Program-made: the position numbers and the translations under genes
Shown: one piece after another, positions 26,633 through 28,981 of the stretch
Numbering within the stretch: the first letter of the stretch is position 1
How the letters are laid out: each line of letters starts with the position of its first letter
Assembly: GCA_022709525.1 (NCBI GenBank)
Contig: JAKLIQ010000001.1
Span: 78,709 to 142,708 of the forward strand
Length of the DNA stretch: 64,000 bases
Reading direction: 5' to 3'
Origin: Candidatus Omnitrophota bacterium
GTDB taxonomy: Bacteria; Omnitrophota; Omnitrophia; Omnitrophales; Aquincolibacteriaceae
Notes under the pieces: model-generated
Database searches by the model: none
Seen by the model: only the letters and a program-made list of their open reading frames with translations
Told to the model about the DNA's origin: nothing

Positions 26633-26727
26633 TTCCCCCCGAGCTTCTGTTATACTACCGCCCTGCTTCGAAGTCGATCTTTGTAACCTACGGCGCGGGG
26701 TGGAGCAGCTCGGTAGCTCGTTGGGCT

Positions 26728-27344
26728 CAAGTGGATACAAAACTCAAGTCAGACATAGCAGAAAGTGCCGTTCTTACCCGGCTTTTGAAAGAGGGATTTA
26801 GAGTTCTTAAACCCGTAGGCGACAGGTTGCCATACGACCTGGCCTTGGACATGGGTAAAAAACTTTTCAAGATCCAAGTCAAAAGCGCGTGGGGCAAGGA
26901 CGGCATCTACAATGTTGACAGCCGGCGGACCAAAACAAACCGGCGGAAAATGTTGCGAAGTCGTTATGCTGAAGACGACTTTGATTTTGCTGTGTTGTAT
27001 ATTGAGGATCTCGGTATTTTCTATGTGATGCCGCGGAATGTTTTTGATTCTTATAAAAGCGGGATCAGAATTGTAGAAAAGATCACAAGGCAGAGAACGC
27101 CGAGATCCGGAAAATATCGCGAAGCTTGGGATTTGTTGAAAAGGGCCGCTTAACCGGAAACGGTTAAGGCAACACCTGTCAAACTCGGTGAACCCTGTCA
27201 GATGGGAATACCGAACCAAGCCTTACGGATCGTTCGTGAGGAAGGCGTAGAGACTAGACGGCAGGCACCCGAAAAGGTGAAGGTATAGTCCAGACTACAA
27301 ATCTGCCAACAGCAAGGCAGAGCGGTGAAAACCGTAGTAGGATG
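26728..27344 (+). mobile_element. Group I self-splicing intron (IC3-like) carrying an ORF
   Basis: The 3' 200 nt contain gtcaaactcggtgaaccc and gaaggcgtagagactagacggcaggcacccgaaaagg, then ggtatagtcc. These match the conserved P3/P4/P6/P7 core of the Azoarcus tRNA-Ile intron as recalled. P9-like hairpins follow, ending in a terminal G. Confidence 0.75.
26731..27153 (+). CDS. Intron-encoded putative homing endonuclease, 140 aa, possibly PD-(D/E)xK-type like I-Ssp6803I of the cyanobacterial tRNA-fMet intron
   Basis: The ORF fills the peripheral 5' part of the intron. Motif LPYDLALDMGKKLFKIQVKS is PD-(D/E)xK-like. Its GTG start lies 3 nt after the 5' splice site, so the true start is uncertain. 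Confidence 0.5.
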   Translation: MDTKLKSDIAESAVLTRLLKEGFRVLKPVGDRLPYDLALDMGKKLFKIQVKSAWGKDGIYNVDSRRTKTNRRKMLRSRYAEDDFDFAVLYIEDLGIFYVMPRNVFDSYKSGIRIVEKITRQRTPRSGKYREAWDLLKRAA

Positions 27345-28981
27345 CATAACCCAAAGGTCGCAGGTTCAAATCCTGCCCCCGCTACCATCTGTACTGGAGA
27401 AGAAGGCTTTGGGATCGGGTACCACCCGACCAAAGCCTTTTTTTCTTTGGGGAGAATTCGCACGGCGCCGATATAACGGCGGATAAACGCTTTCTTTTCG
27501 CCTACGGACGCTTCTTCCGTGAAGATCTGATCAAAGTCCCTGATCCCGCTCAAAACCTCGCGCGAGGCCTTTTCCAGGTCGATCCTCGTTTTCGAATTAG
27601 CCTTCAAGCTCACGATCTCCACTTCAAGCCTTTTCTTCTCTTCGCTCAAGACGGTGATCTTCCGGTTCAAAATGACCTTATGCTCCGGGTCCACAGTATC
27701 CAGCAGGTCGTCGATCTTTTGGTTGATCGCCTTAACCCGCTGCTCAAGGGCGTTTATTTCCAACGCCGGGTTTTTAAACTGCTTGTCCAGTTCCGTCCGG
27801 ATCTCGCCCAAAAGCTCCTTGTAAGGATTTTCTTCACCCAGACGATTCTTGATCCCTTGCAGGATATGACCCTCAAGCCGATGGCTCGCAAAAGAAAAGT
27901 TTTCGCAAACAGCATTGCCCCGGCTCCAGAACCCGCCGCACGTGTACGAGTGGGTTTTGATCTTTTTCGAATTCGTCCTCGTGGTCCCGAAATAAGTGTG
28001 GCCACATCTGCCGCAAGTGATCAGTCCCGAAAGAAGATAATTTGAAGTGGTCGCCCGTCCGCTGAACTGGCTCGGGAACTTGCTCCGGCCCTTTCGCTTC
28101 TCCTGCGCAGCAAGCCACAAGTCTTTCTTGATGATCACAGGATACACATTCTCTTTTACGAACCATTCCGATTCCGGGTTATGTTCGATCTTTTCCTGCC
28201 GGAGCCTCGGCTTCTTCTCCGCCTGGCCGTTCCTGACCGAATGGAATTTGCTCAAGGTCCTCCGGTTCCAGACAAAGGCGCCGTAGTAGATCGGGTTCAT
28301 CAAAAGAGAACGGAGACAGGAAATCGTCCATGTTCCGCCGCGAGGCGCAGGAATCCCCTCTTGATTCAGCGCGTCCGCGATATTCCTGTAGCCCATTTCT
28401 TTCCGGGCGTAGCTTTCAAAGATCCTTCGAACAACAGCCTGTTTTTCGGCGCTATCAAGGATAAGCGAGGATTTTCCGTTTTCATTGACGATCCGTTTGT
28501 AGCCGTAAGGAACCGGGCCGCCGAGAAATCGCGCTTCTCTCGCGCAAGTGACTTGTCCGCGGATGGTGTCCCTTGAAAGACTTTTCAGATAAAGATTCGC
28601 ATTGAACTGAAAAACCGGGCGCAGGATCTCGTCCATATCATCGCCTTTAAGATTTTCTTTTACATAAAGGACCTCGACACCCGCATTTCTCAAGATGTGC
28701 AGGTAATAGCCGACCTCGATATTGTCGCCGCGGCTAAAACGGGCAATGTCGTAAGCGATGATCAGATCGAACGGCCGTGTTTTTTCCTGGGCCGCCAGAA
28801 CCATGGCCTGAAACTGGCTCCGGTTTTCGGAGAACGCTCCGGAGATCGCATCATCGGCATACCAGCCGGTCATTTCGAATCCTTCCCGTTTCGCAAAAGA
28901 AAGGATCTCGCGTTTCTGGTCTTCGAGGGATTGTTCTTGTTTGTCCGTGGAACGTCTGAGGTATCCGACCGCTTTCTTCAT
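27254..28981 (-). CDS. Large serine recombinase (resolvase catalytic domain, recombinase domain, zinc ribbon, coiled coil)
   Basis: VGYLRRSTDKQ catalytic-serine motif; about 575 aa; RBS aggagg precedes ATG 28981. The C-terminal 45 codons run antisense through tRNA exon 2 (the AGAGFEPAT translation), so the true stop is probably upstream of 27388. Confidence 0.8.
   Translation of the reverse strand: MKKAVGYLRRSTDKQEQSLEDQKREILSFAKREGFEMTGWYADDAISGAFSENRSQFQAMVLAAQEKTRPFDLIIAYDIARFSRGDNIEVGYYLHILRNAGVEVLYVKENLKGDDMDEILRPVFQFNANLYLKSLSRDTIRGQVTCAREARFLGGPVPYGYKRIVNENGKSSLILDSAEKQAVVRRIFESYARKEMGYRNIADALNQEGIPAPRGGTWTISCLRSLLMNPIYYGAFVWNRRTLSKFHSVRNGQAEKKPRLRQEKIEHNPESEWFVKENVYPVIIKKDLWLAAQEKRKGRSKFPSQFSGRATTSNYLLSGLITCGRCGHTYFGTTRTNSKKIKTHSYTCGGFWSRGNAVCENFSFASHRLEGHILQGIKNRLGEENPYKELLGEIRTELDKQFKNPALEINALEQRVKAINQKIDDLLDTVDPEHKVILNRKITVLSEEKKRLEVEIVSLKANSKTRIDLEKASREVLSGIRDFDQIFTEEASVGEKKAFIRRYIGAVRILPKEKKALVGWYPIPKPSSPVQMVAGAGFEPATFGLCILLRFSPLCLAVGRFVVWTIPSPFRVPAV

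Follow-up and report, generated by a model that had tools for sequence, protein, structure and literature searches.

A group I intron of 617 nucleotides (nt), carrying an open reading frame (ORF) for a homologue of the homing endonuclease I-Ssp6803I, was identified in the initiator tRNA (tRNA-fMet) gene of Candidatus Omnitrophota bacterium (GenBank assembly GCA_022709525.1). The DNA analyzed, here called the window, is a stretch of 64,000 nt from contig JAKLIQ010000001.1 (positions 78,709 to 142,708 of the forward strand). Coordinates are those of the window unless a related locus, denoted by an L number, is named. The evidence makes it very probable that the element is a group I intron that is mobile and belongs to the tRNA-fMet 33/34 type, with an endonuclease of the I-Ssp6803I family, for which splicing, cleavage specificity and mobility are inferred from the family. 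As judged from its sequence, the element looks intact and is probably functional.

The initiator tRNA gene is split between U33 and C34

In a preliminary description of this DNA, two parts of an initiator tRNA of 34 and 43 nt had been proposed to be separated by an insert of 617 nt. The quoted strings and these lengths were recovered exactly when the coordinates were checked in the window. The gene and its terminator comprise the following features.

26694-26727, plus strand: tRNA-fMet 5' exon (positions 1-33: acceptor 5' strand, D arm, anticodon-stem 5' strand, C32 and U33)
27345-27387, plus strand: tRNA-fMet 3' exon (CAU, anticodon-stem 3' strand, variable loop, T arm, acceptor 3' strand, U72, A73 and CCA)
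27396-27446, plus strand: intrinsic terminator after the tRNA, a hairpin of 23 base pairs (bp) followed by a U run (folding energy -32.6 kcal/mol, z = -6.2)

When the two exons were joined, a canonical 77-nt tRNA(CAU) cloverleaf was obtained with ARAGORN. The joined exons show the hallmarks of an initiator, namely the mismatch C1xU72, A11:U24 in the D stem, the three G:C pairs G29-G31:C39-C41 and the CAU anticodon, and the CCA end is encoded in the 3' exon. Compared with the tRNA-Met genes of E. coli, they were 90.9% identical over 77/77 nt, with a median of 4 matches per genome, which equals the number of initiator tRNA genes in E. coli. It is concluded that the interrupted gene is the initiator tRNA of this bacterium and that it is split between U33 and C34. 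The long hairpin after the tRNA was not reported by a simple terminator scan and was confirmed by folding; the terminator is also conserved in two intron-less alleles, L044 and L061, which are described below.

Default ARAGORN reported no tRNA in the whole 64-kilobase (kb) window. Because standard tools (ARAGORN, and Rfam at its curated threshold) miss the gene, such genomes may appear to be without an initiator tRNA. If the genome has no other gene for tRNA-fMet, the cell would depend on self-splicing of the ribozyme for every start of translation.

The insert is a group I intron

The features of the intron, with helices named by the usual group I nomenclature (P1-P9, with joining segments J), are listed here.

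26728-27344, plus strand: group I intron of 617 nt between U33 and C34, starting with CAAGUGG and ending with GGAUG (terminal G at 27344)
27143-27147, plus strand: internal guide sequence GGGCC, the 3' strand of P1
27149-27168, plus strand: P2 hairpin, CUUAACC GGAAAC GGUUAAG
27175-27265, plus strand: P3 (27175-27180 with 27260-27265), enclosing J3/4 AAA, P4, P5 and P6
27185-27190 with 27209-27214: P4
27193-27195 with 27204-27206: P5
27221-27227 with 27235-27241: P6
27250-27291, plus strand: P7, the presumed guanosine-binding helix, made of G27250, the bulged A27251 and GACUA 27252-27256 with UAGUCC 27286-27291
27266-27269 with 27276-27279: P8, enclosed by P7
27295-27340, plus strand: P9 three-way junction
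27295-27298 with 27337-27340: P9
27302-27307 with 27316-27321: P9a
27322-27326 with 27331-27335: P9b

A local Rfam search matched the group I intron family RF00028 at 27125-27309 with 45.7 bits and an E value of 2.7e-10. In the Rfam alignment, the three strings by which the preliminary description had recognized a group I core fall at 27178-27195 (P3/J3-4/P4/P5), 27242-27264 (J6-7/P7/P3') and 27282-27291 (J8-7/P7').

Relatives were collected by a scan of a genome collection with the ORF, which gave 26 loci. A split tRNA-fMet gene was present in 16 of these 26, and together with the window they form a set of 17. The ribozyme cores of this set were aligned after the ORF-bearing loop had been trimmed in silico. 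In all 17 split genes exon 1 ends with GGCU (U33), the intron ends with G and exon 2 begins with CAUAACC. The intron of L017 begins with T and not with C as in the window, which removes the phase ambiguity and fixes the junction at U33|C34. The published insertion position of tRNA-fMet group I introns is likewise 33/34 (PMC13011429). In its intron mode, ARAGORN called a tRNA-Leu(CAA) with an intron at 37/38; this candidate was ruled out by the rule that a U precedes the intron and a G ends it, by the intron start in L017 and by the published 33/34 site.

RNAalifold, applied to the 17 cores, recovered P2, P3, P4, P5, P6, P8 and the P9 three-way junction, with compensatory changes in 33 of 62 pairs. 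It also paired the two exon ends with each other, which is really the anticodon stem of the mature tRNA, and this pairing was replaced by the canonical P1 and P7. The canonical structure was written afterwards, including P1 and the P3/P7 pseudoknot; it comprises 60 pairs in 10 helices and was counted on the 17 loci. Standard pairs were found in 95.5% of the cells of P1-P9, compared with 27-43% when the partners were slid by 1-3 columns. Both sides had changed in 31 of the 60 pairs, and the observed covariation score was reached by none of 500 shuffles (0/500).

All pairs of P2 (6/6) have changed on both sides. Helices 3, 4 and 5 of the canonical structure, which make up the P3-P6 region, are paired in 100%, 98.2% and 93.0% of cells and contain 12 compensatory pairs; in P8 4/5 pairs are compensatory, and helices 8-10 of the P9 junction contribute 9 more. 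P1 consists of G27144.U26727, G27145:C26726, C27146:G26725, C27147:G26724 and G27143:C26728, the last being the first nucleotide of the intron. Of its cells 96.5% are paired, with the C:G pair present in 17/17 loci and the splice-site wobble U26727.G27144 a U.G in 17/17. The terminal G (G27344 in the window) is equally a G in 17/17 loci. P7, which forms a pseudoknot with P3, is invariant including the bulged A in 17/17 loci and matches the Rfam consensus; its support is conservation, without covariation.

Homologous tRNA-fMet 33/34 introns have been classed as subgroup IC3 (PMC13011429), and by the class of these homologs the window intron would belong to the tRNA-fMet family of IC3 type. Over 149 well-aligned columns its ribozyme core shares 70-84% identity with each of the tRNA-fMet introns that were sampled, and these make up a single intron family that spans phyla.

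The intron encodes an I-Ssp6803I-type endonuclease

The 5' part of the intron is occupied by a single ORF.

26731-27153, plus strand: homing-endonuclease ORF of 140 amino acids (aa) with a GTG start at intron nt 4, matching PF11645 and the structure 2OST

The protein matched PF11645 (PDDEXK_5) over residues 1-135 of 140 with 132.9 bits (cut-off 26.1; E value 1e-38) and the PDB entry 2OST over residues 2-137 with an E value of 4.4e-44 and 58% identity. Among 242 aligned family members, 46 positions show a conservation of 97% or more; the window protein retains every one of these and departs from the family consensus at the 90% level or above at one position only. Residues E11, D36 (following P34-Y35), Q49 and K51 are 100% conserved in the 242 members and are present in the window protein; by analogy with the PD-(D/E)xK fold family, they would have catalytic roles. 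The ratio of non-synonymous to synonymous substitution (dN/dS) between the window ORF and that of its closest relative, L001, was ∼0.09 at a dS of ∼1, and the ORF is under purifying selection. Sequence similarity to I-Ssp6803I identifies the product as a PD-(D/E)xK homing endonuclease homologue of the I-Ssp6803I type. In the crystallized 2OST chain, a Q is found where the window protein (E11) and all 240 database homologues have an E; this may possibly be an engineered inactive variant for the DNA complex.

In the host metagenome-assembled genome (MAG), the protein is 100% identical to an NCBI protein named "group I intron-associated PD-(D/E)XK endonuclease". NCBIfam has no model for the ORF protein, so this name must come from Pfam. 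Among the protein gene calls on the public contigs, which cover protein-coding genes only, the endonuclease is the sole product in 26694-27387.

Comparison with ORF-less relatives indicated that the ORF fills the P1 loop. Its stop codon TAA (27151-27153) lies inside the 5' strand of P2, and the last codons overlap the internal guide sequence and P2; translation through these elements would compete with ribozyme folding. The ORF of L001 has, like that of the window, a GTG at +4, which shows that this start has been maintained. Embedded ORFs of the Omnitrophota type (window, L001-L012, L003, L018, L020) have their start codon 2-8 nt past the 5' splice site, too short a distance for the intron itself to hold a ribosome-binding site, and the sole purine-rich stretch upstream of the GTG in the window is the GGG of the anticodon stem, which is sequestered in P1. 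The leader before the start codon measures 20-27 nt in L033, an allele close to that of Synechocystis, and in L035 of Hymenobacter, where it contains AAGG. As a speculative possibility, the excised intron might itself serve as a nearly leaderless mRNA for the enzyme, the synthesis of which would then be coupled to splicing.

On all these points the analysis agrees with the preliminary description, which had proposed a split initiator tRNA, a group I intron with its splice phase between U33 and C34 (fixed independently here by L017 and the published site), and a 140-codon PD-(D/E)xK-like ORF in the architecture described for I-Ssp6803I. The P1-P9 fold and the pairing of the guide sequence to the exon end, which it had named as checks, could be written for the intron (P1 with U.G in 17/17 loci, P7 invariant).

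Embedded, free-standing, decayed and absent states are found among relatives

The form in which the endonuclease gene lies in the P1 loop was found in the window, at least nine relatives and Hymenobacter. In a second, free-standing form the intron in the tRNA measures 202-258 nt and has no ORF; the endonuclease gene is located 49-323 nt downstream of the tRNA, past its terminator. This form was observed in L004, L014, L015, L016, L017 and L019, which are MAGs labelled as Omnitrophota or Planctomycetes, and in L034 (Scytonema hofmannii PCC 7110) and L036 (Chroococcidiopsis sp. CCNUC1). It is present in both endonuclease subfamilies described below. Some of the free-standing genes are preceded by a good Shine-Dalgarno sequence (AGGAGG in L004, GGAGG in L019). 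No description of the free-standing arrangement at tRNA-fMet was found in the literature searched.

Decayed endonuclease genes could be identified in three loci. In L020 (148-643) an in-frame deletion has removed residues ∼26-78, including D36, Q49 and K51, and the intron has shrunk to 496 nt. The endonuclease gene of L005 (∼3001-3330) stops at codon 109, and the free-standing gene of L015 (2273-2341) stops at codon 22. The ribozyme cores of L020, L005 and L015 are intact in the alignment.

Metagenomes were scanned for the uninterrupted junction with the exact exon sequences of the window as query, and an intron-less junction was found in 37 contigs, which represent candidate substrates of the enzyme. 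Two of these, L044 (reverse complement, tRNA at ∼1009-1085) and L061 (∼720-796), contain an intron-less tRNA of which the 77 nt are identical to the spliced product. It follows that the presence of the intron is polymorphic where the site is otherwise identical, and that perfect targets exist. Downstream of the tRNA, both contigs have the same terminator and then a serine recombinase that is 87% (L044) and 63% (L061) identical to the one downstream of the tRNA in the window, and the upstream flanks are unrelated; the two contigs and the window may thus share an island and not a chromosome. Candidate empty sites beside uvrB were rejected: in these three contigs, with UvrB 79-88% identical to that of the window, the intron-less tRNA-fMet is located 2-4 kb away and in one case in the opposite orientation.

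The embedded, decayed and absent states form the pattern that would arise if the intron repeatedly invades, decays and is lost. That the tRNA-fMet intron and the PD-(D/E)xK endonuclease represent a living series of stages of joining and parting within one cellular gene is a possible but rather improbable reading. The embedded, adjacent, decayed and absent states provide material for studying how endonucleases and introns become associated.

Partial copies of the tRNA-fMet 3' exon were observed directly past the free-standing gene in L019 (after 3435) and L014 (after 2532), and another in L013 (after ∼3417). The copy in L019 starts at CCTGAAGG, tRNA position 39. In several loci the tRNA 3' end is found again further downstream, in one to three additional copies, namely in L001 (961-981, 1174-1194 and 1341-1361), L002 (3888-3909) and L005 (4855-4886). 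The partial 3'-exon copies suggest either small cassettes inside the tRNA 3' half or tandem islands at tRNA-fMet.

The endonuclease belongs to a distinct, mostly Omnitrophota subfamily

A search with the I-Ssp6803I sequence gave more than 1,400 clusters, including many cultured cyanobacteria, Hymenobacter weizhouensis and a Planctomycetes MAG. Among the top 120 hits per query, the proteins fell into two groups with a mean identity of 71% within the group of the window, 77% within the other and 58.5% between them; as only top hits per query were compared, intermediates between the groups may exist. In the same set of hits, the named members of the window group are all Omnitrophota, apart from one Melainabacteria MAG, and the Hymenobacter and Planctomycetes MAG proteins are placed in the cyanobacterial group. 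The cultured Bacteroidota species Hymenobacter weizhouensis (L035, CP110139.1, tRNA at 1442-2177) has an endonuclease-bearing tRNA-fMet intron of 661 nt, and its endonuclease is 74% identical to I-Ssp6803I. This element is likely to reflect cross-phylum transfer, and H. weizhouensis would be a tractable organism for experiments.

The best-studied relative is the tRNA-fMet intron of Synechocystis, which has 655 nt and encodes the 150-aa I-Ssp6803I (PMC1995217). The enzyme is a tetramer with a 23-bp pseudo-palindromic target, and close homologues of it are for the most part found in cyanobacteria (PMC3384342). The intron of Synechocystis sp. PCC 6803 (U10482; 2OST) and that of the window are alike in the initiator tRNA host, the site 33/34 and the ribozyme and PF11645 families. 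In both, the ORF is located in the 5' part upstream of the catalytic core, with 655 nt/150 aa compared to 617 nt/140 aa in the window. Over the 149 columns, the ribozyme core of the window is 72.5% identical to that of an allele of which the endonuclease is 95% identical to I-Ssp6803I. They differ in that the host of the window element is an Omnitrophota and not a Cyanobacteriota bacterium, and that its endonuclease falls in a separate sequence cluster. In addition, the GTG of the window lies 3 nt past the splice site, whereas the near-Synechocystis allele has an intron leader of ∼20 nt. Activity has been shown for I-Ssp6803I and is predicted for the window protein.

A survey of complete genomes from 2026 lists 333 tRNA group I introns, of which 12 have endonuclease genes; tRNA-fMet introns bearing PF11645 were found in Cyanobacteriota only (2 cases), and ORF-less IC3 introns at tRNA-fMet 33/34 in Bacteroidota, Desulfobacterota, Nitrospirota and Omnitrophota (PMC13011429). 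The Omnitrophota entry is a complete genome, GCF_004102945.1, with an ORF-less tRNA-fMet intron of 252 nt (PMC13011429). These ORF-less introns share with the window intron the gene, the position and the ribozyme family (69-73% core identity), and one entry is from the same phylum; they are without an endonuclease gene, whereas the window intron carries one. The statement in the preliminary description that tRNA group I introns are rare outside cyanobacteria, plastids and a few proteobacteria had to be corrected, since the tRNA-fMet intron family was already recorded in other phyla, including a complete Omnitrophota genome. As regards its suggestion of horizontal spread, a recent transfer from cyanobacteria is not indicated, as the endonuclease subfamily is ∼58% identical to the cyanobacterial clade. 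By sequence comparison, the window element belongs to a sub-lineage that diverged long ago, and it does not give the impression of a recent cyanobacterial import.

To our knowledge, an endonuclease-bearing tRNA-fMet intron has apparently not been described before in Omnitrophota. What is new here is modest: the endonuclease subfamily is distinct and comes mostly from Omnitrophota, the start codon follows the splice site by 3 nt, intron-less alleles with identical exons occur naturally, and in some relatives the endonuclease gene is free-standing. The endonuclease-bearing tRNA-fMet intron is extended from Cyanobacteriota to Omnitrophota, and a large and distinct I-Ssp6803I-related subfamily is added. 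This subfamily offers variants of a compact and structurally characterized endonuclease, presumably recognizing an anticodon-arm sequence that differs slightly, UUGGG/CCCAA instead of UCGGG/CCCGA.

The window intron also resembles the Azoarcus tRNA-Ile and Anabaena tRNA-Leu introns, which have compact IC3 cores in the anticodon loop and a short P1 on anticodon-arm nucleotides, and which are like it in the sequences of J3/4, J6/7-P7 and J8/7. These introns have no ORF and are inserted at 34/35 in tRNA-Leu and at 36/37 in tRNA-Ile. They thus differ from the window intron in host tRNA and position, and the P9 of the latter is a three-way junction. In 'collaborative homing', known from phages with other endonuclease families and protein-coding targets, a free-standing endonuclease gene lies beside an intron-bearing target. 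The free-standing relatives resemble this arrangement and the window does not, its gene being inside the intron.

Proposed mechanism and alternative explanations

In the proposed mechanism, the precursor would be transcribed up to the hairpin terminator. The exon end GGCU and the first intron C would pair with GGGCC ∼415 nt downstream to form P1, with a U.G wobble at the splice site. Once the P3-P9 core has folded, a free guanosine bound in P7 would attack after U33, and the terminal G27344 would dock and direct exon ligation, resulting in the mature 77-nt tRNA. The expected target of the 140-aa enzyme is the intron-less tRNA-fMet gene, which it would cut in the pseudo-palindromic DNA of the anticodon arm, and repair from the intron-bearing copy would then spread the intron together with its endonuclease gene.

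Several observations weigh against a functional mobile intron. At the curated threshold, Rfam reported nothing over the whole window, as the 45.7 bits lie below the gathering score of 50; the local E value was 2.7e-10. The shortfall is best explained by the 420-nt ORF, which splits P1, since 8 of 10 homologous loci tested passed the RF00028 curated threshold with 53.5-75.2 bits. P1 has only 5 bp and no compensatory change, so that conservation is its only support. RNAalifold offered an alternative in which the guide sequence pairs with the 3' strand of P7; this pairing is equally invariant, and covariation does not decide between it and the canonical P1/P7. On the opposite strand, the ORF of a large serine recombinase overlaps, in antisense, the terminator, all of the 3' exon and 91 nt of the intron. 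Whether the enzyme is expressed is made uncertain by the GTG start, which lies 3 nt past the splice site without an evident Shine-Dalgarno sequence before it, and by the upstream region of the tRNA, where a simple scan found no sigma-70-like promoter. Finally, the decayed ORFs of L020, L005 and L015 show that such endonucleases do die.

The points on expression and decay would fit a relic, in which splicing continues or a pseudogene is backed up by another tRNA-fMet copy, while the endonuclease is unexpressed or inactive and the element is immobile and inherited only vertically. The published view that tRNA introns seldom carry endonuclease genes and seldom transfer points in the same direction (PMC13011429). 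We nevertheless regard a relic as improbable: the protein has kept 46/46 near-invariant residues including E11/D36/Q49/K51, dN/dS against L001 is low at 0.09 with dS near 1, the GTG start is common to L001, and intron-less alleles with identical exons coexist in nature. A different question is whether the interrupted gene is an initiator at all, because CAU is common to initiator, elongator tRNA-Met and the lysidine-modified tRNA-Ile2. The first-pass tool of the survey called many such genes Ile2 or Met before correction (PMC13011429), and the tRNA-Leu(CAA) call of ARAGORN in the window shows similar disagreement. The 1:72 mismatch, A11:U24, the three G:C pairs and the 90.9% identity to the four-copy E. 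coli family are, however, all found together, and the survey reassigned the homologous genes to fMet (PMC13011429), which makes an elongator tRNA-Met or tRNA-Ile2 very unlikely. That the sequence derives from a MAG could raise the suspicion of an assembly chimera, or of tRNA halves brought by chance around unrelated sequence. Such an origin is given practically no weight, as the locus is present on six independently assembled contigs (NCBI, ENA, Logan) with 99.8-100% identity, and the architecture recurs in 16 further loci as well as in Hymenobacter, Scytonema and Chroococcidiopsis from culture. The window is moreover 99.99-100% identical to contigs of the NCBI MAGs GCA_035454205.1 and GCA_035389965.1. 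A mobile tRNA-fMet intron with its own endonuclease is therefore retained as the preferred explanation.

A serine recombinase and a putative island at the tRNA 3' end

The recombinase gene that overlaps the tRNA is arranged tail-to-tail with it.

27254-29119, minus strand: large serine recombinase (Resolvase, Recombinase and Zn_ribbon_recom domains)

The last 12 nt of the tRNA (CCCCCGCTACCA, 27376-27387) recur once more in the window, at 35944-35955, where they are followed by a terminator-like hairpin. The two repeats bracket ∼8.6 kb that contain the recombinase, a Fic protein, a PLD-like nuclease and unknown ORFs, and this segment is a putative island integrated at the 3' end of tRNA-fMet. 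One MAG contig ends ∼90 nt before the distal repeat.

In L016, a riboswitch of the cyclic di-GMP class (c-di-GMP-I, RF01051, 60.9 bits) was found on the minus strand at 655-751, upstream of the tRNA locus, and has no connection with the intron.

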